Shown: positions 2,803-58,468 of the stretch, one piece after another
Layout: the number at the start of each line of letters is the position of its first letter
Numbering within the stretch: the first letter of the stretch is position 1
NCBI GenBank assembly: GCA_943356445.1
Contig: CALREZ010000001.1
Location: 15,818-79,817 of the forward strand
Origin: Candidatus Nomurabacteria bacterium
GTDB taxonomy: Bacteria > Patescibacteriota > Minisyncoccia > Phycocordibacterales > CAIJYI01
Direction: 5' to 3'
DNA length: 64,000 nucleotides
Position numbers and translations under genes: made by a program
Notes under the pieces: generated by a model
What the model was told of the DNA's origin: nothing
Seen by the model: only the letters and a program-made list of their open reading frames with translations
Database searches by the model: none

Positions 2803-3491
2803 ACACTTTTAATATGGAAAAAAACAGCGTAAAAGAATTTGAAGATGCTCGGTGGAGCGGGACAGACCAAACCCCCGTTTTTCGGCATGCAGAAGCCCTC
2901 AGAATGGTTTCAAAAGGACAAAAGGTCTTAGACATCGGCTGCGGAGATGGTCTTCTTTTGGAGGCTATGGTGAAGAAAGGCGTCATCGTTTCGGGTGTTG
3001 ATATCTCCGAGGAGGGGGTTAAGAAATGCCGAGCAAAAGGGCTTGAGGCTTCCGTCGCTAATGCCTCCCACGAAAAGCTCCCTTTTCAAGATCATTCCGT
3101 TGATACGGTTACTCTGCTTGATATTCTTGAACATGTGTATTCTCCGGAGGTTCTTTTGAAAGAAGCCGTCCGCGTTTCAAGAAAGAATGTTATTATAAGC
3201 GTCCCGAATTTCAATTCCTTGCCGGCGCGCATTCAGGTTCTTCTCGGTCGCGTACCCGAAAATAATCGTCCTCATAAAGGCCACCTGTATTGGTTTAACT
3301 ATTGCGTCCTGTTAAAACTTCTGAAGAAAAGCAATCTTCGCGTAGAAGAAGTGAGCTGCAATACTTTTTGGGAGAACGTTCCCGTCATCGGTTTCATGAT
3401 GAAAGGGCTTTGCCGGCTTTTTCCTTCTCTCTTTGCTTTGTCCTTCGTTGTGAAAGCGAGTACTATAATTTCCGACAAAAATGAGTCATAA
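2790..3491 (+). CDS. class I SAM-dependent methyltransferase
   Basis: 233 aa. SAM-binding motif I VLDIGCGDGLL and post-I acidic residue; 4-bp overlap with the upstream gene. Confidence 0.75.
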   Translation: MRALNTFNMEKNSVKEFEDARWSGTDQTPVFRHAEALRMVSKGQKVLDIGCGDGLLLEAMVKKGVIVSGVDISEEGVKKCRAKGLEASVANASHEKLPFQDHSVDTVTLLDILEHVYSPEVLLKEAVRVSRKNVIISVPNFNSLPARIQVLLGRVPENNRPHKGHLYWFNYCVLLKLLKKSNLRVEEVSCNTFWENVPVIGFMMKGLCRLFPSLFALSFVVKASTIISDKNES

Positions 3492-4632
3492 ACCTTTAAA
3501 TATCCTCGTCATCAACTGCGACTGGCGGAATCTTTTTGAAAAAGATTTTGACGAACTTCTCAAAAAAATGGATCGGTGTCTTATGCGCACCGAGCTCAAT
3601 AATTTTTTCTTTTTTTCATGGTCGGATAAAAGTTATGAAAAGCGCCAAGGCGAACGTTTCTTTTCCGTGCATAAAAAAACGATGTGGCAGAAATTCCGTC
3701 CGATGTTTGATCTCATTTCCGTTTTTGCTATTCCTCATATCTTAAAAAAACATCCGTTCCGTCCCGACGTTATTTTAGTCTACGATCTCGGTTTTCTGCC
3801 TGCGGCAAAAGCGGTAAAGAAACGCTTCGGAGGAAAGATTGTTTTATGTCTTATCAACAGGCCGGAAGAACTTGCCCGAACAAGAAAGTTTGCTGCCGTG
3901 AAAGCATCGTATTCTTTGCTTGGAGAAAAGTTTTTTATTCATTCTGCCGACATCGCTTACACTATCAATTCTTCCATGAAGCGGTACATTGAATCCCTTG
4001 GTTTTCCTCCTGATCGGATAAAAATCTTTTCATGCGATACCATTCGTCGAGATATTCCTTTTATTGAAAATTCCGTTCGCGGAACCGTAAGGCGGCAATA
4101 CGACATTTCTCCCGAGAAAAAGATTTTCCTCTCCGTGGGGAGATTGGAAGCCGAAAAAGATTTTCCTCGGCTTTTTGAAATACTTTCTCACCTGGATGAA
4201 AAATATCTGCTTATTATCCTCGGAAGCGGAAGCCTTCTCCCTGATTTTCAAAAGAGAGTAAAAGAACTGGGTATTGAAAATCGGGTTATTTTCGCCGGAC
4301 CGATAGAAAGAAAAGACCTTTGGAATTATTACCTGGATGCCGATATCTTTATGCTGCTATCCAAATCGGAAGCGCTTGGGCTGGTTTTTTGGGAGGCCAT
4401 GTATATGAATGTTCCGGTTATTGGCAGTATGGCGACCGGTATTTTGGAGACTATCGGGGGCGGTGGAGAGAGAGGTTTTTTGGTGGGGGAAAAAGATGAT
4501 ATACTGAGCATTGCTGAAAAAATAGACTTATGTCTTGCCGGTGGCGAGAAAATAGAAGAAATGAAAAAAAGAGCGCGGGAATACGTAGAAGTGCAAATGA
4601 AAAATACTCTATCCATTAACGATATCCTCTAA
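3481..4632 (+). CDS. glycosyltransferase family 4
   Basis: 383 aa. GRLEAEKDFPRLFEIL ... SEALGLVFWEAMYMNVPVIGS is a GT4 C-terminal domain. Confidence 0.75.
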   Translation: MSHKPLNILVINCDWRNLFEKDFDELLKKMDRCLMRTELNNFFFFSWSDKSYEKRQGERFFSVHKKTMWQKFRPMFDLISVFAIPHILKKHPFRPDVILVYDLGFLPAAKAVKKRFGGKIVLCLINRPEELARTRKFAAVKASYSLLGEKFFIHSADIAYTINSSMKRYIESLGFPPDRIKIFSCDTIRRDIPFIENSVRGTVRRQYDISPEKKIFLSVGRLEAEKDFPRLFEILSHLDEKYLLIILGSGSLLPDFQKRVKELGIENRVIFAGPIERKDLWNYYLDADIFMLLSKSEALGLVFWEAMYMNVPVIGSMATGILETIGGGGERGFLVGEKDDILSIAEKIDLCLAGGEKIEEMKKRAREYVEVQMKNTLSINDIL

Positions 4633-6860: not shown

Positions 6861-8520
6861 TACTATGATGACTTCAATTAACTCGTGGATAAAAACTCGC
6901 AAGAAAGATTTTGTCGCTTTATTCTTTTTTATGGTTGTCGCCGGCGGATGCGTTTTGTACGGATCCACGCTTCCTTTTTCTGTAAATGGAGATACCTATG
7001 TTTCTCTTCTCGCCAATAAAGCCTCGGCAGATATCAGTTATCCCGACCGAGCGATGATCCTGCGAAATGATTTTAAACCGTATGTCTATCCGTCCGTCCT
7101 CCAGTTCTTTAACGAGCGCTTTTCTCCGAAAGACTACACTTTTATTTTTCTTTTTTTTCTGGTTGTCGCTACCGGGTTTGCGGGGTATGTTGCTCTTAGG
7201 ATGCTCGGGTTTTCACGAACGGTTTCTTTTGCCGTATCTTTGATCGCTTTGCCTCCTCGTTCCAGTATCGGGTCGGAAATTTGGGGAGTTTTTGTTCCGG
7301 GAGATACTCTCGGGCGAACATTCGGATTGCCGGTTCTTTGGCTTTTGGCCGCATGGTACATAAAAAGAAAACATGAGAAAAAACCTCTCTGGCCTGTTTT
7401 TGCGGTTTTGGGTCTCACGACATATGTGCATCCGGTCAGCATTATTTTCTTCGGCGGAATTCTATTTTTGATTATGCTGTATCAGATAGTGACCGAGAAA
7501 AATTATACAGAAGGACTAAAGGACTTTGCAATAAGTGTTGCTATGTTCTGTACCGGGGCCTCTCTTCTTTTGCAAAGAATTTTTATCACTACCTCAAATA
7601 TCGCATCTAAACACACGGGTTTTGCTTCCGTTTCCAATACTGAATATGCGCAGGCGGTATATTCCAGGATTCGCTGGGATTTTCCGCCTGCGAGTACGGT
7701 GTGGCTGCGAGTTGTCGCTATTATCAGTTTTATGTTCGTGGCCGGAGCGATTTGGGCATATTTTCAGATCCGCGAACAGAAACCTTCCAAAGAAAATAGT
7801 TTATACAAAGAGATCTATCGTTTTGCTGTTCCTCTTATCGCTTTCTCTTCGGTTTTGTCCATCGCTCTTCCTTCTCTCCAAATTTGGCTGATGAGAGAAC
7901 ACGGCTGGCCTCTTATCCTCCAGCAGGGAAGTCGTATGTTCAAGTATTATTATTTGGGGGTCTTTCTCCTTTTTGCCGTCGCTTTGTCTGTTTTTATAAA
8001 AAAGTATTCTCCTAAAAAATATATTATCGCGCTTATCGTCGTGATAGGAATGATCAGTTCCTCTTTCGGGCTGGAATGGTTTGAGTTCTTGATAGGGTAT
8101 AAGAATTATTGCGATGGATTTATTCCCGTCGCTTTGCAAAAAAAGACTTTCGCAAAAGCGGATACAAAAATGTATCCGGAGATCTGCAAAGAAATGAAAG
8201 ACGCCGGAATCAAAAAAACAGACCTCGTTCTTTCCGGAGATTTTCCTCTGCGGTATTTTTGCGAAACAAAGCTTCTCGCGACTTTAGAGGAAGGGTCATC
8301 GTATCTTATGGCGGGCCGCTCTGAAATGGTATGGTGGTATCGGACTTTCTGGCAGCAGGACGCCGCTTTTAATAAATCCCAAGACTTGATTGATTTTGCA
8401 AAAAAGCAAAAAGCCGGTTATGCTTTGGTCACCGTTGGGTCTCCTCTTGAACAAGAGTTTAAGGAAAAGGGAATGATAAAAGAAAAGGGGACAGTCTATT
8501 CAGTCGTTAAATTCCAATAA
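6847..8520 (+). CDS. polytopic membrane protein, putative GT-C-fold glycosyltransferase (Gtr type-specific component-like)
   Basis: 557 aa with many hydrophobic segments and a C-terminal soluble domain. It sits between a GtrA-like and a GtrB-like gene. No diagnostic motif recognised. Confidence 0.45.
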   Translation: MLKNNTMMTSINSWIKTRKKDFVALFFFMVVAGGCVLYGSTLPFSVNGDTYVSLLANKASADISYPDRAMILRNDFKPYVYPSVLQFFNERFSPKDYTFIFLFFLVVATGFAGYVALRMLGFSRTVSFAVSLIALPPRSSIGSEIWGVFVPGDTLGRTFGLPVLWLLAAWYIKRKHEKKPLWPVFAVLGLTTYVHPVSIIFFGGILFLIMLYQIVTEKNYTEGLKDFAISVAMFCTGASLLLQRIFITTSNIASKHTGFASVSNTEYAQAVYSRIRWDFPPASTVWLRVVAIISFMFVAGAIWAYFQIREQKPSKENSLYKEIYRFAVPLIAFSSVLSIALPSLQIWLMREHGWPLILQQGSRMFKYYYLGVFLLFAVALSVFIKKYSPKKYIIALIVVIGMISSSFGLEWFEFLIGYKNYCDGFIPVALQKKTFAKADTKMYPEICKEMKDAGIKKTDLVLSGDFPLRYFCETKLLATLEEGSSYLMAGRSEMVWWYRTFWQQDAAFNKSQDLIDFAKKQKAGYALVTVGSPLEQEFKEKGMIKEKGTVYSVVKFQ

Positions 8521-9478: not shown

Positions 9479-9901
9479 GTGGAAAAAGAAAAAAGCAAAA
9501 AGGAAAAAGGGACGGACGACGGAAAAATAACTTTTTTTACTCAACTTGAAGTTTGGAAAATGGGACATAAAACTGTTCTCGATGTTTATCTTATTACCAA
9601 AAAATTTCCAAAAGAGGAAATTTTTGGAATAACTTCTCAAATGAGAAGGTGTGCCGTTTCTATCACCTCAAACATTTCAGAGGGATTTGGCCGATTTTCG
9701 TATAAAGAAAAAATACAGTTTTATGCCATTGCGCGCGGCTCAATAACAGAATTGCAAAACCAACTTCTTATTTCAAAAGATATTGGGTATATTTCAAAAT
9801 CGGAATTTGAAAGAATTGCAAAGAAAACCGTTGATACGCATAAAATGCTGCAAGGTCTTATTAAAAGTTCTCAAAAAAGGATTCAGGGCATTGGAAATTA
9901 A
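9479..9901 (+). CDS. four-helix-bundle protein (23S rRNA intervening-sequence protein family)
   Basis: LEVWKMGHKTVLDVY ... ITSQMRRCAVSITSNISEGFGRFSYKEKIQFYAIARGSITELQNQL matches the PF05635-type four-helix-bundle family. The start is uncertain: GTG at 9479, and no in-frame ATG precedes the conserved N-terminus. Confidence 0.65.
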   Translation: MEKEKSKKEKGTDDGKITFFTQLEVWKMGHKTVLDVYLITKKFPKEEIFGITSQMRRCAVSITSNISEGFGRFSYKEKIQFYAIARGSITELQNQLLISKDIGYISKSEFERIAKKTVDTHKMLQGLIKSSQKRIQGIGN

Positions 9902-44939: not shown

Positions 44940-46319
44940 ATGAACTCTGTTATTTTATGCGGCGGATCGGGAACAAGGCTCTGGCCCCTTTCGCGAAAAA
45001 ATTATCCGAAGCAGTTTTTAAATCTCTATAGCGACAAATCTCTTTTGCAGGAGACGTTTTTACGCATGCGCCGGATCATGCCGGATGAAAATATCTTTTT
45101 CGTTACGAACAAAGATAATTATTACAACGTGTTCAACCAGATAAAAGAAATTTTTCCGACATTCAGCGAAGATAATATCATTCTGGAACCGACGGCGCGC
45201 AACACGCTTCCGGCCGTCGCTTTGGCGGTGAAATACTTGAGGGAAAAGAAAAAAATACCGGCAACCGAGCCGATACTTTTTGCTCCCGCCGATCATTGCA
45301 TTCTTGACGGCGAAGCATTCGCCAAAGTGGTAAAGAAAATGGGCAAGGATGTCGGTGATCATATCGGCACTATCGGCATTGTTCCCCTTAAACCGGAAAC
45401 GGGCTACGGCTATATCCAAAAAGGAAAAAAACACGGCAGTTTTTTTGACGTTGTTTCTTTTAAGGAAAAACCGAACAAGACGACAGCGGAAGAATATCTT
45501 GCTTCGGGCGAGTATCTTTGGAACTCGGGCCTGTATATGTTTAATGCCAAAACTTTTGTTTCTGCCCTTAAAAAACATGTTCCCGAAACGGCGAAGGCGT
45601 ATGAAGAAAAATGGGAAAGATTTATAGAACATTTTTCCGAACTCCAAAAAATTTCCATAGACAATGGCATCTCCGAAAAATCGGACAAGATAATTCTTTT
45701 TGAGGGGGATTTCGGGTGGAGCGATATCGGTTCTTTTGACAGCCTTGCGGAAGCGTCGGAGAAAAACAAAAAACATTCTTCGCGCCACGCGAGCGTTGAT
45801 TCCAAAAACATATTCGTTCATACGACGAGCAACCGGCTTATCGCGACCCTCGGCGTTGAGGACTTGGTTATCATTGAAAACAACGACAGTATTCTTATCC
45901 ATAAAAGGGGAAGAAGCGAGGACGTGAAAAAAATGCTCGCGCATTTGGAAGAGAAAAAATATCCCGAGGTAGAGCACAACATTCTGGTTCACCGACCGTG
46001 GGGAAAATATGAGGTGCTGATAGACAATCCTTTGTATAAAGTGAAAAAAATCACCGTGTATCCGGGAGCGAAACTCTCTTATCAATCACATGAACACCGT
46101 TCCGAACACTGGGTTGTCGTGGAGGGCGTAGCGACCGCGACGGTGGGAAACGAAGAAATTCCGCTTCATAAAAATCAGAGCACGTTTATTCCGGCTCAGA
46201 CAAAACATCGTTTGGCGAATTTCGGGAAAATAAATTTGAAGATTATTGAGGTTCAAACGGGGACGTACTTCGGAGAGGATGATATCAAACGGTACGACGA
46301 CATCTATAAACGAATCTAA
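44940..46319 (+). CDS. manC: mannose-1-phosphate guanylyltransferase / mannose-6-phosphate isomerase (type II PMI)
   Basis: 459 aa. N-terminal ILCGGSGTRLWPLSR nucleotidyltransferase and a C-terminal cupin with a QSHEHRSEHWVVVEG motif. Confidence 0.9.
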   Translation: MNSVILCGGSGTRLWPLSRKNYPKQFLNLYSDKSLLQETFLRMRRIMPDENIFFVTNKDNYYNVFNQIKEIFPTFSEDNIILEPTARNTLPAVALAVKYLREKKKIPATEPILFAPADHCILDGEAFAKVVKKMGKDVGDHIGTIGIVPLKPETGYGYIQKGKKHGSFFDVVSFKEKPNKTTAEEYLASGEYLWNSGLYMFNAKTFVSALKKHVPETAKAYEEKWERFIEHFSELQKISIDNGISEKSDKIILFEGDFGWSDIGSFDSLAEASEKNKKHSSRHASVDSKNIFVHTTSNRLIATLGVEDLVIIENNDSILIHKRGRSEDVKKMLAHLEEKKYPEVEHNILVHRPWGKYEVLIDNPLYKVKKITVYPGAKLSYQSHEHRSEHWVVVEGVATATVGNEEIPLHKNQSTFIPAQTKHRLANFGKINLKIIEVQTGTYFGEDDIKRYDDIYKRI

Positions 46320-51358: not shown

Positions 51359-51566
51359 AGAGGTTACGCTCATTGAAAAAGCGCCTTTATTTTGAAAGGC
51401 CACATACAAGTACAAATGCAACACAAATCGCAATTGATAAAAGTATCAGTTGCGCGTGCTAATAGAATTTTGCAAGAATTCGTTAGACGTAATTACGAGA
51501 ACAAAAGACCAAATAGCACAGCGATGCAAATTGGATTTTCTTTTGTTTCACTCTTGTCTTTTTTTT

Positions 51567-53050
<1,484 letters not shown>

Positions 53051-53362
53051 TTCATTTTATTGCGATCATCTTGTTTTCTTCGGAAAACAAAGATTGATTC
53101 GAAATGGCGATTGCTCAACCTAGTTGAGTAAGGCAATGGTTTTCTTGCCTTTAAATAAAAACCCCTTCAGCTTCTTTTGGTTAAAGAAGCAAACCCATAA
53201 AGAAAGAGTGAAACAAAAGAAAGTTAAATTTGCTTTCTGACTCTCGTATTTTGTGAAGCATTGCAAAATTAACCCGCATGATCTGCGGTTTTTTTTGTGC
53301 ATATGCAAAAGGTATCTCCTCACGCTATTTAAAAAATGGCTTGACTGTGTATTTTTTTTGTC

Positions 53363-53579
53363 GCCGGACGGGGTCTCCGACCGCTACTCGGTCAGTACAC
53401 CTTTTGGACTTTTTGTTTCGCTCACCGCTCACAAAAATTCTCAAAAGGTCTTGCGGAATGGGTCCCTGCCCATTCCTCACCCGTCCCGTCATTTGTGTAA
53501 CCATACAAACTTCTGTTTTTATACCAAACTTTATTGGGTAATTCAAACAAACAGACGGGGTCAGAGACCCGCGTCTGGC
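53363..53579. repeat. GC-rich long-stem inverted-repeat element, copy A (MITE-like / structured-RNA-like)
   Basis: gccggacggggtctccgacc (53363..53382) pairs with ggtcagagacccgcgtctggc (53559..53579). The interior shares the TTGTGTaACcA ... CAAACTTTATtGGGTaATtCAAACA core with copy B. Confidence 0.55.
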
Positions 53580-53637
53580 AAAGATTTGCTTTTGGTAAAC
53601 AAAAACAGTTTTTTTACATAATATCAGGAGAAGGAAG

Positions 53638-54036
53638 ATGAAAAAAGAAGATGTAAAGAAAATTAAGAAAACATTGGGATTCGCTTTGTTTATCCTCGGA
53701 CTGCTTAACGGGAGTTTAGAGACATTGGTGTTTATGGATAATGCTCTCGGCGCGGTGATATTCGTCGCTGGTTTCGGCACCTTAGGTGTTTGCGTCGGTG
53801 ATTATCTGGGAGGTCTTTATATTCAAAACGAATTAAAAGCGAAAGATAACGTGTTAGGTTTTATCTCATTATCTTTGGGAATGATTGTTGGTATTGCTGC
53901 TTGTCATTATTTAGCGCTTGGCGCGGTAATCGCCCTTTTGGGGATAGGCGTGTCTGTAAAAATACTTACTGATGCTCCATTGAAAGTTTCATTATCGGTC
54001 GTGAAGAAAGATCTAAAAGAACTCAGCGAAGGATAA
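53638..54036 (+). CDS. small glycine-zipper membrane protein, hypothetical
   Basis: 132 aa with three hydrophobic segments rich in GxxxG. AGGAGAAGGAAG lies 1 nt upstream of the ATG. A terminator hairpin lies at 54061..54091. Confidence 0.5.
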   Translation: MKKEDVKKIKKTLGFALFILGLLNGSLETLVFMDNALGAVIFVAGFGTLGVCVGDYLGGLYIQNELKAKDNVLGFISLSLGMIVGIAACHYLALGAVIALLGIGVSVKILTDAPLKVSLSVVKKDLKELSEG

Positions 54037-54060
54037 AGGAAAAAGGCGTTCTTTTTTATG

Positions 54061-54091
54061 GGACGGGGCCACAACCCCGTCCTTTTTATTT
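54061..54091 (+). terminator. rho-independent terminator
   Basis: ggacgggg-ccacaa-ccccgtcc followed by TTTTTATTT. Confidence 0.6.
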
Positions 54092-54094
54092 GCG

Positions 54095-54123
54095 TTGACG
54101 CGTTTTTGCTAAAAACATATAAT
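54095..54123 (+). promoter_or_regulatory. sigma70-like promoter giving a predicted leaderless transcript
   Basis: TTGACG (54095..54100), 17-nt spacer, TATAAT (54118..54123). The ATG of the downstream CDS is at 54130, 7 nt after the -10 element. Confidence 0.5.
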
Positions 54124-54129
54124 AAAAGA

Positions 54130-54660
54130 ATGAAGAAACCTATTTCAAAAACAAGCAAATCTGACTCACAGAAAAAACTCGCACCGGAAGTTCGTGAGGC
54201 TCTTGATTCCTATCATTTGGAAATGCAAAAATATGTTGATACTTTACAAAAAAGGTCTGACGAGGATATAAAGCGATATATTGGTTCTTTGACAGAAGAG
54301 TATCAAGGAAGAACTTCCGCCGTCGCGGAACAATTTTCGGGGTTGAACGAAAAGATAGATACCATAAAAGAAACGCTTGATGAACACGGAAGAATACTCG
54401 AAATGCACACCGAGATGATCGGTACGCTTATGGAAGACGTTTCCGTTCTAAAAGAAGATGTTGCTGTCTTAAAAGATGACGTTTCCGTTCTAAAAGAAGA
54501 TGTTGCTGTCTTAAAAGATGACGTTTCCGTCTTAAAAGAAGATGTTGCTGTCTTAAAAGATGACGTTTCCGAAATCAAAGATGAACTCAAAAACAAAGCC
54601 GACAAAACCGAAGTTATCCATCTTTCTCGGAGAGTTTCTGTTCTTGAACGCAATGTTTAG
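54130..54660 (+). CDS. coiled-coil protein with 14-aa tandem repeats, hypothetical
   Basis: 176 aa, strongly heptad-like, with a DVSVLKEDVAVLKD x3 repeat block. Start set at MKKPISK because of the promoter and terminator context. Confidence 0.55.
   Translation: MKKPISKTSKSDSQKKLAPEVREALDSYHLEMQKYVDTLQKRSDEDIKRYIGSLTEEYQGRTSAVAEQFSGLNEKIDTIKETLDEHGRILEMHTEMIGTLMEDVSVLKEDVAVLKDDVSVLKEDVAVLKDDVSVLKEDVAVLKDDVSEIKDELKNKADKTEVIHLSRRVSVLERNV
54436..54572 (+). repeat. 42-nt perfect/near-perfect tandem repeat x3.3 inside the CDS
   Basis: gacgtttccgttctaaaagaagatgttgctgtcttaaaagat is repeated at 54436, 54478 and 54520 (the third copy has 1 indel-neutral change), plus a partial fourth copy. Confidence 0.85.
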
Positions 54661-54698
54661 ATAGTGTGTGTTCATATTGTCAAAAATTGTTAAAAAAT

Positions 54699-54725
54699 AA
54701 GCCCCGTTTGTTTACGGGGCTTTAG
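54699..54725 (+). terminator. rho-independent terminator
   Basis: aagccccgt-ttgttt-acggggctt hairpin followed by a T-rich tract, 40 nt after the stop. Confidence 0.55.
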
Positions 54726-54749
54726 TCTTTTGTTTGGATACTTCAGTTT

Positions 54750-54835
54750 TTAACGTGGGGATTATCCTTCCGCCACTTTATTCTTATTCTCTTTGAGTGC
54801 TCCTTTTATTAACGTGGGGAACACTCTTCCGCCAC
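54750..54835. repeat. two 27-nt direct repeats with 59-nt periodicity
   Basis: ttaacgtggggattatccttccgccac (54750..54776) and ttaacgtggggaacactcttccgccac (54809..54835). Confidence 0.6.
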
Positions 54836-54915
54836 ATCATTCTGGAATAAGAATAGCAGTTTCGGAAAAAATGTCAAGTCAAGTGATAACCGGGGAAATG
54901 AGTTTATAAAGTTTC

Positions 54916-55048
54916 CGCCGGACGCGGGTCTCCGACCCTGTCCGCAACGTTTGTGTGACAAGACGAACTTTCTTTTTTTAAACAAACTTTATGGTGTCAT
55001 CCAAACATTCCAACGCGGTCGGAGACCCGCGTCGGGCGACGACGACGG
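54916..55048. repeat. GC-rich long-stem inverted-repeat element, copy B
   Basis: gccggacgcgggtctccgacc (54916..54936) and ggtcggagacccgcgtcgggc (55028..55048) form a 21-bp stem with 1 mismatch around a 91-nt interior. The interior is homologous to copy A. Confidence 0.6.
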
Positions 55049-55245
55049 ACGACGGACGTCCGGCAAAAACGAGTGTGAGGAGATACTTTTTGTGCCGATC
55101 CCCGCATTCGCGAGGATGACGATTTGGGGGTATTTTAGTCCAAGGAAATGAGTTTTTGGATTCACAGATTTTTCTTTGACATTTTACATTAAATATGATA
55201 CTATAAAATAAGGTTTTGGAACTTTCAAAAAAGAAAGAGGGAAAT

Positions 55246-55467
55246 ATGCCGAGATACATATTGGAAGTTAATTACGAAGAACAGAAAGATCATCACGAGC
55301 GGTATACTTCATGTGAACGGTTGGAATTTGAACGCGATAGCGACAAATCCGCCTTAAGATACGCATTTAGTTCAGCAAGTATCAATGCGAGAGAAGAAGA
55401 CAAAAAGTTATTCAGAGTGGTTGAACCATATGGTTCAACCAAGAGAATCTATTCAGAAGAAGAATAA
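55246..55467 (+). CDS. small hypothetical protein
   Basis: 73 aa from MPRYILEV, with AGAGGGAAAT upstream. Followed by a hairpin plus T-run terminator at 55478..55507. Confidence 0.4.
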   Translation: MPRYILEVNYEEQKDHHERYTSCERLEFERDSDKSALRYAFSSASINAREEDKKLFRVVEPYGSTKRIYSEEE

Positions 55468-55477
55468 GAAATTTACA

Positions 55478-55507
55478 CCCGTCGGTTTATCCGGCGGGTT
55501 TTTTTGT
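55478..55507 (+). terminator. rho-independent terminator
   Basis: cccgtcgg-tttat-ccggcggg followed by T8. Confidence 0.55.
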
Positions 55508-55569
55508 TTTTGTTGTGTATGTTTGGTATAATAACTGAACAAAGATTAAACATTTATTATCTATTTTTT

Positions 55570-57354
55570 ATGAAAGAATCTTTTCCTCCAAAAATAAACG
55601 AAGAAAAAACAGAGGGAGAAAATAATTTCCAAGAGGCAAAAAACGGAGTGGAAGTTCCGAAAGGAGAAGAAAGGGAATATGCAAAATCCAAAGAGGAGAT
55701 GTGGGATATGGTTGGAAAGCTCAATGACGGAGACGGCTTCGTTTCTTATGATTTTACTCCCGAAATGATGGAGAAAAGAATGGATCTTAACGGCAGGGCC
55801 GTTGATCTCATCGGTAAATTTCAAAAAACCGGATATCAAAAAGGAGATTTTGAAAAAGCTCATCAACTCTACCATGAATTTTCTTCTTTTTATGAAGGGG
55901 TAAAAAGTCGCGGAAAAAAGCAGGTTGACGAACGAGCATACGAAGCGAGTCTCCAGAGACGATCGGAGATCGAGAATGCTTTGAAAAAACCGACATCAAA
56001 TGAACCCGAGCCTTCTGTTCGTCAGAGCGATACATCGGTTGAAGAAATAACAAAAGAACTGGAAAAATTCAAAGCTGAAGGCGGGCTCAATTTATATTAC
56101 ACGAGCAAAGAAGATCTTGTCAGCGATCTTATTTCTTCCCGTCATCTTGCCGAGAATCCGGAACAGGAAAAAATAATGACAAAGTTTTTTGAAGCAAGGG
56201 TTTCTCTGCATCAGGAAAAACTTTGGTATAAAGATTTTCGTTCCCATCATCCTTTTTTCGCGCCGTTCATGAAAGTGGTCAATATGCTGGCGCTTTCTCC
56301 TGAAATTTTGTCGGGTGCTTATAATGGTCGTAAATTGCGACAGATGGCTAAAGAGGGAAAGCTTACAGAACAACAAGTTGAAAAGATAAATACGGCGCTT
56401 CAAGAAATAAAAAATGAGGAGGTGGAAAAGCCTTCTTTGGAAAAACAAGGCGGAGGATCTAAAAAACAGTCTGAAAATATCGCTCAAGAGGAAACATCTG
56501 AAATGGAAAAAGGAGGTCTCGAATCATTCTCTTCCAGTATCGGGGAAAGCGATCCGAAGGATCCGAATCGCATAAACGAAGATCAGGTTTTGGAAAGAAA
56601 AGATAAGGGTGTGTATGCCGTATTTGACGGTGTTGGAGGGCAAGAACAGGGAGACGTTGCTTCATATGTTGCAAAGCATGCCTTATCAAAAGAATGCGAT
56701 ACTATGCCTGAAAACATGTCGATTCAGGAAACGCAAGATTTTGTCCAGAGAGTCATAAAAAAGATCAGTGATAATATTTTTGAAAATAATCGGCTTGCCA
56801 CAGAGCGCGGAAAATTAAGTAATATGGCCAGCACTATGACCCTTGCTGTTGTCTGGAATGGTAATAATGGAGAGAAAAAACTTATTGTCGGAAATATCGG
56901 AGATAGTCGAGCTTATCTTCAAAAACAAGGGAAACTTGAACAACTTACCATGGATGATAACTATCTTCGGAAACATGCGGGAGATGATACTCGCGCTCGG
57001 AGTCTTCAGCTCATCCTTAACAACATCAACAGCGAAGAGGAGATCAATCTGCTTGAGGGGGTTAATGAAAAAGATAAATTTTTGTTACTGGAAAGTTTTA
57101 GAAATAGAAATATCATTATGAAGTGTCTTGGTCTAGAAAATCAAAATCCGGAAGTAACTGTCCATGATTTTCCGGCCGGCTCTGAGCTATTGCTTGCGAC
57201 GGATGGTTTGACGGATAACCTTACTGATAAAGAAATAGAGCAAAATTTTGGAAAGAACCTTGCGGTTGCGGCGCTTAAAAGAAGCAATGAGGGGCATGGC
57301 AGAGCAAAACAGGATGATATTAGTTTTGTTACCGTGAAAAACTCATCCAGATAA
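55570..57354 (+). CDS. PP2C-family Ser/Thr phosphatase with long N-terminal extension
   Basis: C-terminal ~250 aa contain VYAVFDGVGGQEQGDVAS ... LAVVW ... GNIGDSRAYL ... LATDGLTDNL (PP2C motifs). The N-terminal ~330 aa are charged, coiled-coil-like and unassigned. Confidence 0.7.
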   Translation: MKESFPPKINEEKTEGENNFQEAKNGVEVPKGEEREYAKSKEEMWDMVGKLNDGDGFVSYDFTPEMMEKRMDLNGRAVDLIGKFQKTGYQKGDFEKAHQLYHEFSSFYEGVKSRGKKQVDERAYEASLQRRSEIENALKKPTSNEPEPSVRQSDTSVEEITKELEKFKAEGGLNLYYTSKEDLVSDLISSRHLAENPEQEKIMTKFFEARVSLHQEKLWYKDFRSHHPFFAPFMKVVNMLALSPEILSGAYNGRKLRQMAKEGKLTEQQVEKINTALQEIKNEEVEKPSLEKQGGGSKKQSENIAQEETSEMEKGGLESFSSSIGESDPKDPNRINEDQVLERKDKGVYAVFDGVGGQEQGDVASYVAKHALSKECDTMPENMSIQETQDFVQRVIKKISDNIFENNRLATERGKLSNMASTMTLAVVWNGNNGEKKLIVGNIGDSRAYLQKQGKLEQLTMDDNYLRKHAGDDTRARSLQLILNNINSEEEINLLEGVNEKDKFLLLESFRNRNIIMKCLGLENQNPEVTVHDFPAGSELLLATDGLTDNLTDKEIEQNFGKNLAVAALKRSNEGHGRAKQDDISFVTVKNSSR

Positions 57355-57377
57355 AGAAATTCTTTTTTTAATTTTCA

Positions 57378-58265
57378 ATGGAAAACATACCAAAAGAGAA
57401 CCTCTCTCCTAAAACAGATGTTTCTTTTCCTTTTGCAAACTTGGAAAGATCTAAAGACGTGTTCGGTCCGAGTGCCGTTTTTTATGATGTTCCCGGTCAT
57501 CCGGAATTGATTGTAAGGAAGTGTTTTGTTTCAAAGGAAGTGATGGAGAACATAAATGAGGAACTGGAGGAAAAGGATGAATATAAAGATTTTACGGAGG
57601 AAGAATTGGAAGAGATCAGAAATAAGAAAAAAGTGGAACAGCTTATTAAGAATGCCGGGGATTTTCAAAAAACAGGAAAACGTTACGGACTGCGAATGGC
57701 GGAAACGAGCTATGTGGTCGGTACGGATCCTGATTCCGGAAAACCTGAAATTTTTGGGGTAACGGACCGCATCATTGGAGAAAATCTGAAGACTATGCGC
57801 GGTATTTCAAAAAAAATGGAGGGTGAAATTGATGAGGTATTCAGCGGTATTATTTTTCATTTGAGAGATTCATATTTGGGGAATGGTGTTTTTTGGAGAG
57901 ACTTTAGAGACGATCAGATTTTATACGGAGCCAAATACAGGGAAACAGAACAGCATCCCTATCTTATTGATGTTGATCCTTTGATGGTTTCGTGGGTTGA
58001 TCCTAAAATATGCAAAACGGAAAACGAGAGAGAAGACCTTTTCTGGACAAAAATCGGCCTTATTCTTGCGATTGAGGTGGAGAGGGTTGAAGAGAAAATT
58101 CAGTCAGGACGTCTTGTAAAAACAAGAGAAGCTTTGAACGATGTTATAAAAACCGTACCGGAACCGAAGAGCGTAAGGGCGAAAAATTGGTATGATAGCT
58201 TGGTTGATGATTTGCGGGGTAACTCCATAAATGATTTTCCCAATATCGGTTTCAGATTTTCATAA
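57378..58265 (+). CDS. hypothetical protein
   Basis: 295-aa ORF immediately downstream of the PP2C gene. Good coding look; no family recognised. Confidence 0.45.
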   Translation: MENIPKENLSPKTDVSFPFANLERSKDVFGPSAVFYDVPGHPELIVRKCFVSKEVMENINEELEEKDEYKDFTEEELEEIRNKKKVEQLIKNAGDFQKTGKRYGLRMAETSYVVGTDPDSGKPEIFGVTDRIIGENLKTMRGISKKMEGEIDEVFSGIIFHLRDSYLGNGVFWRDFRDDQILYGAKYRETEQHPYLIDVDPLMVSWVDPKICKTENEREDLFWTKIGLILAIEVERVEEKIQSGRLVKTREALNDVIKTVPEPKSVRAKNWYDSLVDDLRGNSINDFPNIGFRFS

Positions 58266-58346
58266 AGAAGGTCTTTGATGAGGAAATTTTTAAAGTCGAG
58301 TAAATGATTGCAGTTTTTCATTTTTTTTGGTATATATAGAGTACTT

Positions 58347-58418
58347 GCGCGCATAGTTCAGGGGTAGAACGCTGTCCTGATAAGACAGAGGTCCTTGGTT
58401 CGATTCCAAGTGCGCGCA
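58347..58418 (+). tRNA. tRNA-Ile (anticodon GAT)
   Basis: Cloverleaf read by hand. Acceptor GCGCGCA/TGCGCGC, D arm GTTC ... GAAC, anticodon stem CTGTC/GACAG with loop CTGATAA, T arm CTTGG-TTCGATT-CCAAG. CCA is not encoded. Confidence 0.8.
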
Positions 58419-58468
58419 CAAACGACGGTAGCGTTAAAGTCTCTTTTATTTTGTCACTCTCTCGTAAT

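Follow-up and report, generated by a model that had tools for sequence, protein, structure and literature searches.

What are the two GC-rich elements that stand out in a 64-kb stretch of a Candidatus Nomurabacteria contig (CALREZ010000001.1; the whole stretch is hereafter called the window)? The elements, copy A (53360–53582) and copy B (54914–55040), bracket a segment of two genes just downstream of the 16S rRNA gene. A reading of the sequence alone (the sequence-only reading) had described them as a homologous pair of hairpins, and had offered a miniature mobile family, a composite mobile cassette or a conserved structured RNA as possibilities. Our analysis indicated that A and B are very probably REPINs, i.e. 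inverted doublets of repetitive extragenic palindromic (REP) sequences, of a REP-RAYT (REP-associated tyrosine transposase) system in a Paceibacterota-like bacterium of the candidate phyla radiation (CPR). A separate structured element, designated X, was found inside copy A.

Two homologous hairpin doublets

The homology of A and B was confirmed. A search of the 64 kb for GCCGGACGSGGGTCTCCGACC, allowing up to 3 mismatches, gave 3 matches (0.00 expected from 100 shuffles), all of them at A and B. The fourth arm, at the left of A, carries a 1-nt deletion. A 93-nt 3' part is common to A (53492–53584) and B (54950–55042) with 75% identity, and the stretch from tail through spacer to tail is 76% identical between them, far above the shuffled controls. 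The two copies are each other's closest relatives and lie in direct-repeat orientation. Copy B had been drawn as far as 55048, but B proper ended at about 55040.

Both copies were predicted to form long hairpins. RNA folding of the + strand gave z-scores of −8.1 (A) and −5.4 (B), and the − strand gave similar results. The arms of B (54916–54937 and 55017–55038) are 22 nt long and 95% complementary. The complementarity that the sequence-only reading had put down to 21-nt terminal inverted repeats was thus real, but these are not plain terminal repeats. They are REP hairpins that fold on themselves and possess a head and a tail.

Each arm corresponds to a unit of about 45 nt, consisting of a head (GTCGCC), a 12-bp GC-rich hairpin and a tail (GAAACGTTTG). 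In a doublet the tails of two units face each other over an AT-rich spacer, and a long hairpin of the whole doublet can also form. Copy B (+ strand) is an intact doublet, with a + unit on the left (54914–54958; 55.2 bits, E = 9e-15 with the covariance model R1 described below), a spacer of 37 nt between the unit models, and a − unit on the right (54996–55040; 50.6 bits, E = 3e-13). Copy A, also on the + strand, has a left + unit into which element X intrudes, followed by a spacer and, on the right, a − unit (53538–53582; R1, 50.1 bits, E = 4e-13). The right unit of A alone, as DNA, was predicted to fold at −10.1 kcal/mol (z = −5.2). Read against the unit consensus, the 5' part of the left unit of A (53360–53382, +) contains the head GTCGCC, the 5' stem GGACGGGGTC and the loop. 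Its 3' stem and tail (53477–53500, +), ACCCGTCC followed by CGTCATTTGTG, align to ...GACCCTGTCCGCAACGTTTGTG of B. In the window R1 detected B-left, B-right and A-right, and missed the complete A-left because that unit is interrupted by the insertion.

No other copies were found in the window by BLAST, nhmmer or R1, and none in the 9.4 kb upstream or the 3.3 kb downstream of it. The window's genome is therefore represented by 4 units (two doublets) across about 77 kb. Outside this genome, B aligned from end to end with homologous doublets in two of the sampled loci (L130:900-1039 and L147:658-797; locus numbers are ours).

Immediately after B there is a GACG/GACGGAC run (55041–55066, no strand assigned) with a 12-nt palindrome, CCGGACGTCCGG, at its end. 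The sequence-only reading had correctly pointed out this GC-rich palindromic run. R1 did not detect it. GACGGAC runs of this kind flank REPs in related loci (L140 and L151), and by its sequence the run after B is probably a remnant of a REP head and stem.

A family of units with a conserved hairpin

A scan of the genome collection with the arm core gave, among the matches listed, mostly chance matches in high-GC genomes; the sole informative set among them was six contigs of the Paceibacterota metagenome-assembled genome (MAG) JALNYN01. A more specific unit pattern retrieved 35 stretches of metagenome sequence, almost all of them from a single groundwater metagenome. R1 was built on 13 units collected by hand. 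It gave 139 matches in 299 kb, which were reduced to 93 non-redundant units in 284 kb of related Paceibacterota loci. The check on copy number proposed by the sequence-only reading thus failed to find more copies in the 77 kb around A and B, but succeeded in related genomes. The density of units in these 284 kb is biased upward, as the sampled loci were picked for containing a unit. In one MAG there was roughly one unit per 2–3 kb.

The consensus consists of a single-stranded head (G)TCGCC, a 12-bp stem that is variable but paired, a loop of 3–4 nt, and a tail GAAACGTTT(G/C). The head is nearly invariant (G in 91, C in 91 and C in 92 of the 93 units), and so is the tail (T in 91 and T in 92). 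The full head GTCGCC occurs in 38 of the 93; 78 have C at position three and 91 have G at position four.

The stems covary. Among 119 distinct copies, compensatory changes were present in 10 of the 12 stem pairs. The paired fraction of stem cells was 90.5%, versus 78.5% in shuffled controls and 23–58% when the partners were slid. One stem pair contained 35 G-U cells, which would be A-C mismatches if read on the opposite strand. This one-strand bias suggested that one strand is the folding strand, as expected of a single-stranded fold. Judging from these substitutions, the unit hairpin is under selection. Folding and covariation had been named by the sequence-only reading as checks, and both came out in favor of a conserved structure. 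As DNA, lone units were predicted to fold at −8 to −16 kcal/mol.

The tail-to-tail (+−) arrangement accounted for 22 of 32 neighboring unit pairs, with preferred spacings. The other arrangements were lone units, tight doublets with a common palindromic center (GAAACGTTTC), and clusters of alternating orientation. About 75% of the units lay outside long open reading frames (ORFs), though about 79% of the DNA was within them.

Some units are found in frame within apparently real genes (L075:1720-1789, L140:6668-6711 and L151:2477-2576). A tight doublet lies inside a 291-aa ORF that resembles a KsgA/RsmA-like methyltransferase by reading alone. An orthologous ORF of 313 aa contains one unit in L140 versus two in L151, with the translation …DPVRNVS….

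Units flank RAYT genes in related genomes

All-against-all comparison of the loci revealed a 543-nt segment present twice in JALNYN01, each time between inverted units. The segment encodes a protein of 167 aa. At L075 the gene (2480–2983) lies between units at 2425 (+) and 3013 (−), and at L138 the gene (7820–8323) between units at 7750 (+) and 8335 (−). At a third locus, L157, the gene (3001–3504) is accompanied by units at 2929 (+), 3513 (+) and 3596 (−).

The ORFs of L075 and L138 scored 84.1 and 87.8 bits on the NCBIfam model NF047646 REP_Tyr_transpos (curated cutoff 80), and 25.3 and 31.1 bits on Pfam PF01797 Y1_Tnp (cutoff 23). H61, H63, Y132, N136 and P137, which make up the HUH and tyrosine motifs, were invariant over 24 homologues. 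A profile of these 24 had a sole match in the PDB, 4ER8 (E. coli TnpA-REP; E = 2e-6), in which the HUH and YIxxNPV motifs were aligned. Homologues are annotated as RayT in Paceibacterota, Parcubacteria, Moranbacteria and Methylococcales. One MAG contains two or more RAYT paralogues, with 71% identity. A truncated RAYT remnant was also seen (L132:2082-2201); it retains the first 40 codons, is 85% identical to the RAYT protein P0001, and is directly followed by further REP units.

The RAYT at L157, P0011, has a unit 29 nt upstream and a doublet 9 nt downstream. From tail through spacer to tail, this doublet (L157:3545-3608) shared 70% identity with B and 62% with A; the alignment scores were 19 and 12, respectively, versus shuffled maxima of 6 and 5. 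The contigs carrying P0011 came from ERZ27280321, ERZ27280322 and ERR5863125, and the window strain is present in all three. The P0011 contig is likely, though not proven, to be from the same genome as the window.

These results bear out the suggestion of a miniature mobile family served by an IS200/IS605-type transposase elsewhere, which was essentially correct. Such a cognate transposase had been put forward as a check, and it was found between inverted units at L075, L138 and L157, with none in the window by tblastn. Target-site duplications, which the sequence-only reading proposed to look for, are not expected for transposases of the RAYT class.

The features by which REPs and RAYTs are recognized may be compared with what was seen here. 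The units are short, imperfect palindromes with a stem-loop. They are numerous and chiefly extragenic in the related loci (the 93 units), while the window's genome has only the four. They form doublets, with 62–76% identity among the spacers of A, B and the doublet beside P0011. A RAYT gene flanked by REPs is present in three loci and absent from the window. The protein has the HUH and catalytic tyrosine motifs of RAYTs.

By analogy with the E. coli and Pseudomonas systems, from which we infer the mechanism, the RAYT, a single-copy HUH/Y1 protein related to IS200 transposases, would bind a REP in single-stranded DNA once it has folded into its hairpin, and cut beside the conserved flank. Doublets would thereby be copied or moved to new intergenic sites, with no duplication of the target. 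Once in place, transcribed doublets may serve as 3' hairpins on mRNAs. Support for this mechanism is indirect: the orthologous regions L140 and L151 differ in the REPs present, and the wobble pairs occur on one strand only.

Several observations weigh against assigning A and B to a REP-RAYT system. The head is GTCG(CC), not the GTAG or GTGG of the classical head GT[AG]G. The window itself has no RAYT. The P0011 contig has a GC content of 0.45 versus 0.41 for the window, and tetranucleotide correlation was uninformative here. A and B have stems of the GGGTCTCCGACCC type, versus the GGGGTTGTACCCC type in the units adjoining P0011. The two REPs of a doublet often differ in stem subtype (L052, L008 and L157), so conservation is lower for the long doublet hairpin than for the hairpins of single units. 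No pair of a filled and an empty site was resolved at the nucleotide level. There are only two doublets in about 77 kb, and they are invariant between two strains that are 99.5% identical; with so few copies, local evidence of recent mobility is lacking. The sequence-only reading had itself regarded two copies without polymorphism between strains as an argument against a mobile family. This is what we saw locally, over about 77 kb and with the one 99.5%-identical strain, but it does not apply across related genomes with their 93 units.

The two doublets also appear worn. By DNA folding, their unit hairpins are weaker than those of the units adjoining RAYT; the stems contain imperfections and the tails have degenerated. 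Both doublets are thus probably relics, i.e. rare, old and decaying copies. In GCA_026395595.1, the best relative for the PP2C neighbor (59% identity), the region was not syntenic and contained no REPs in 21.8 kb.

Alternative explanations

The units might be intrinsic terminators or 3'-stabilizing hairpins, with the doublets acting as bidirectional terminators; they would then have a role in host RNA and would not be mobile. Some lone units do come directly after a stop codon, with a T-rich tail behind them (L004 and L022). The genuine terminators of these genomes have similar stems (CCGGACGAGGTT...AACCTCGTCCGG plus a T-run) and score weakly with R1. The G-U bias shows that one strand matters, and a + strand gene lies upstream of each copy. 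On the other hand, the conserved tail is GAAACGTTT, with no U-run beside the stem. The genes of the two-gene segment and the 16S gene have canonical hairpins and T-runs of their own upstream of A and B, and there is no gene on the − strand that the − strand units of A and B would face. Units also flank RAYT genes as inverted pairs, entire doublets are duplicated with their spacers, and some units occur in frame within ORFs. We therefore regard this explanation as quite unlikely. Structured small RNA genes, or processing elements of the 16S transcript, are less likely still. The strong predicted folds, the position just downstream of the 16S gene and the presence of the RNA-like element X in A would fit such a role. 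However, there is no match in Rfam, the parts common to A and B are REP units found about 100 times at unrelated loci in both orientations, related copies are not near rRNA, and the AT-rich spacer has no conserved pairing beyond the unit hairpins. The suggestion of a conserved structured RNA in the sequence-only reading thus holds for the extra segment of A, but not for the doublets as such. The start GTCGCC and the GAAAC after the stem recall many type I CRISPR repeats, and doublets that bracket genes recall integron attC sites. We rejected degenerate CRISPR repeats and attC sites alike, to which practically no probability can be given, from the arrangement of the units and their association with RAYT. 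The orientation alternates and the spacing is irregular, with no regular array of repeats and spacers; neither cas nor integrase genes turned up in the window or the loci; the tail is at odds with the attC core GTTRRRY; and the RAYT association accounts for the family.

There remains the question why A and B bracket two genes. They could be scars like attL and attR, left when a circle carrying a doublet and the two genes integrated at a resident doublet within a pre-existing outer inverted repeat. This repeat consists of two 21-nt arms, 90% complementary, that enclose A, the two-gene segment and B: CAAAAGGTATCTCCTCACGCT (53306–53326, +), outside REPIN A, and AGTGTGAGGAGATACTTTTTG (55072–55092, +), outside REPIN B. 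The arms include …GGTATCTCCTCAC… and …GTGAGGAGATAC…, respectively. At L008, conserved versions of the same flanks (2690-2712 and 2862-2885) surround a single REPIN only about 150 nt across. The two copies are repeated directly, are closer to each other (76%) than to any other doublet and, although the sole doublets in about 77 kb, are adjacent. Nevertheless, neither an integrase nor a transposase was found within or next to the segment, whose products are an uncharacterized membrane protein and a coiled-coil protein, and the composite mobile cassette proposed by the sequence-only reading was not supported. Since A and B are only about 75% identical, any such event must be old. The cassette was not seen a second time, the near-identical strain has the same arrangement, and the L008 locus belongs to a different genome and is not orthologous to that of the window. 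Integration is accordingly improbable, though less so than the other alternatives, and assignment of A and B to a REP-RAYT system is preferred. The bracket is compatible with either duplication of one doublet, the simplest reading, or old integration at a doublet. The outer inverted repeat is unexplained.

Element X inside copy A

The extra segment of about 90 nt that the sequence-only reading had noticed in A is real (about 53384–53476). It represents the core of X, a three-hairpin element of about 110 nt (53371–53492, +) nested in the loop of the left REP of A. A covariance model for X, R2, was used to search 338 kb. It scored the X of the window at 105 bits and found one copy per genome.

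The other copies are at L140:5781-5896, L151:3122-3237 (− strand) and L164:1570-1670 (shared by L164 and L165). The window sequence is 77–81% identical to those of L140 and L151. Between L140 and L151, which are orthologous loci, X is 91% identical and the neighboring genes 72–79%. The fourth copy, that of L164/L165, is GC-richer and was found by searching a protein database with a spurious ORF across X. There are no REPs near it.

In the four sequences, compensatory changes were present in 12 of 34 pairs and 97% of cells were paired; the alignment was fitted to the model, so these counts lean toward the structure. The wobble pairs favor the + strand. The invariant core reads CWGUACACCUUUU, followed by a variable, covarying hairpin and AAAAGGUCUUGCGGAAUGGGUCCCNUCCCAUUCCUCACC. 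X lies inside a REP stem in two of the four genomes (the window and L140), in units of opposite orientation.

No Rfam match was obtained for X, A or B at the gathering threshold, with nothing convincing at E ≤ 10 in 53000–55300, and at E ≤ 1 nothing was found for X in L164. A search of published matter for the invariant strings returned only unrelated papers. From its conserved pairing, X is best read as an independent candidate noncoding RNA, distinct from the doublets. We tentatively suggest that it may be a previously undescribed, single-copy, trans-acting structured noncoding RNA of Paceibacterota-type CPR bacteria. If so, the loops of REP hairpins would be sites of insertion or capture for X, or REP stems would descend from the closing helix of X.

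The L151 copy of X ends in TCACCTCCTTAA, twice. This ending, with the recurring motif CTCCTCAC / GTGAGGAG, raised the idea of a displaced 3' tail of 16S rRNA or a mimic of the anti-Shine-Dalgarno sequence. The idea was rejected, because the genome barely uses Shine-Dalgarno (SD) motifs (4 of 48 genes) and no rRNA lies near X in the other genomes.

The two-gene segment

The segment between the REPINs (53638–54660, +) is outside the repeat family. It contains a gene for a membrane protein of 132 aa (53638–54036, +) and one for a coiled-coil protein of 176 aa with tandem repeats of 21/42 nt (54130–54660, +). Neither protein had a Pfam family at cutoff, and no recombinase was found. The sequence-only reading had given these genes a promoter and terminators of their own. 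Terminator-like sites were indeed present (54060–54083 and 54699–54722), and a promoter-like consensus site was predicted for the second gene (54095–54123). For the first gene no promoter was predicted.

The coiled-coil gene differs between the two 99.5%-identical strains by an in-frame tandem-repeat indel of 84 nt (2 x 42 nt) at 54449–54532, which resembles a contingency-like length polymorphism in the VLKEDVAVLKDDVS repeat. Between the terminator of the segment and REPIN B there are two tandem 57-nt repeats (54728–54784 and 54787–54843). They are 74% identical, and both contain a small hairpin, GTGGGGA…TTCCGCCAC. The second of them includes position 54802, the sole single-nucleotide difference between the strains outside the patch described below.

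Genomic setting

The window has a low GC content (0.41) and comes from a Patescibacteria/CPR genome. The closest relatives of its proteins are labeled Candidatus Parcubacteria or Paceibacterota. The 16S rRNA gene (51560–53056, +) and tRNA-Ile(GAU) (58347–58419, +) were the sole Rfam families that reached threshold in the window, and no 23S gene is present in the 64 kb. A, the two genes and B sit in the 5.3-kb protein-coding interval between the 16S gene and tRNA-Ile(GAU). The 16S gene of this region (51560–58419) thus has no linked 23S gene, and tRNA-Ile(GAU) follows only after these 5.3 kb with five protein-coding genes, each of which has promoter-like or terminator-like sites of its own.

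The 3' end of the 16S gene (53030–53056) reads GGAACAATTTCATT, not GGATCACCTCCTTA, and thus has no CCUCC anti-SD sequence. An SD-like motif precedes the first start codon in 4 of 48 long ORFs, against a background of 12%. Immediately 5' of many gene starts there is a TATAAT-like box. These features suggest leaderless or SD-independent initiation.

The near-identical strain (L120) is 99.5% identical to the window, and its copies of A and B are identical to those described here. Of the 17 substitutions between the two strains, 15 fall in 320 nt (45011–45332) of the gene at 44940–46319, which has NTP_transferase and mannose-6-phosphate isomerase Pfam domains. Such clustering suggests a recombination patch. 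Elsewhere in the window, a gene for a 140-aa protein (9479–9901) matches Pfam 23S_rRNA_IVP and bAvd. The bAvd proteins are an accessory protein type of diversity-generating retroelements.

Comparison with known systems

Work on REP-RAYT systems, for which Nunvar 2010 is reportedly a source, has been done almost entirely in Proteobacteria, and these systems have been framed as long-lived, vertically inherited "replicators". We found no published account that ties RAYTs or REPINs to CPR bacteria. The present family would extend their host range to Patescibacteria, with genomes of about 1 Mb that are thought to be strongly streamlined. A dense MAG with two RAYT paralogues, set beside the few decaying copies of the window, would offer a contrast for studying the growth and death of REPINs. 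For annotation, the family would explain GC-rich hairpins that are otherwise called miniature inverted-repeat transposable elements (MITEs), terminators or spurious ORFs.

RAYTs are host-resident genes, mostly present in single copy. Like MITEs and the palindrome-associated elements derived from IS200/IS605 (PATEs), the doublets are small and non-autonomous, have terminal hairpins, and would depend on a transposase in trans. Unlike them, the units are not deletion derivatives of an insertion sequence, and the hairpin doublet is itself the replicating unit.

The alternating-orientation clusters with short linkers (e.g. L144, L128 and L154) are similar to the bacterial interspersed mosaic elements (BIMEs) of E. 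coli, but no Y or Z unit types or IHF-binding linkers were identified here. The sequences are unrelated, and the resemblance to GCCGGA(C/T)GCGG is at chance level.

Many units are preceded by CGTC (CGTCGCC...), and like the CGTC-tagged REPs they are palindromic, dimeric and extragenic with some intragenic copies. In the CGTC families the stems measure 8–9 bp and open with A-T pairs, the tail is CCA, and a transposase was reported to be lacking (Di Nocera et al. 2013, PMC3733652). The present units have GC-rich stems of 12 bp, the tail GAAACGTTT and a RAYT gene flanked by units. Membership in the CGTC-tagged REPs was rejected, since CGTC stands ahead of only some heads, stem and tail differ, and a RAYT is associated.

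The closest counterpart is the REPIN/REP-RAYT systems of Pseudomonas and Enterobacteria (Bertels & Rainey 2011, PMC3116915). It is in the sense of these authors and of Di Nocera et al. that A and B are called REPINs here. Shared with those systems are the imperfect palindrome, short and GC-rich, whose unpaired head is conserved, the mostly inverted doublets with a spacer that allows a long hairpin, the chiefly extragenic location, the tens to hundreds of copies in some genomes, and the small HUH/Y1 transposase gene between inverted units, with no target-site duplication. The differences are in the head, which is GTCG(CC) here and GT[AG]G there, the additional, strongly conserved palindromic tail (GAAACGTTTC), the longer stem (12 bp), the CPR/Patescibacteria host with its very small genome, the two or more RAYT paralogues per MAG, and the tiny population in the window's genome. 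By its GTCG head and conserved palindromic tail, the family described here departs from the classical definition of REP-RAYT.

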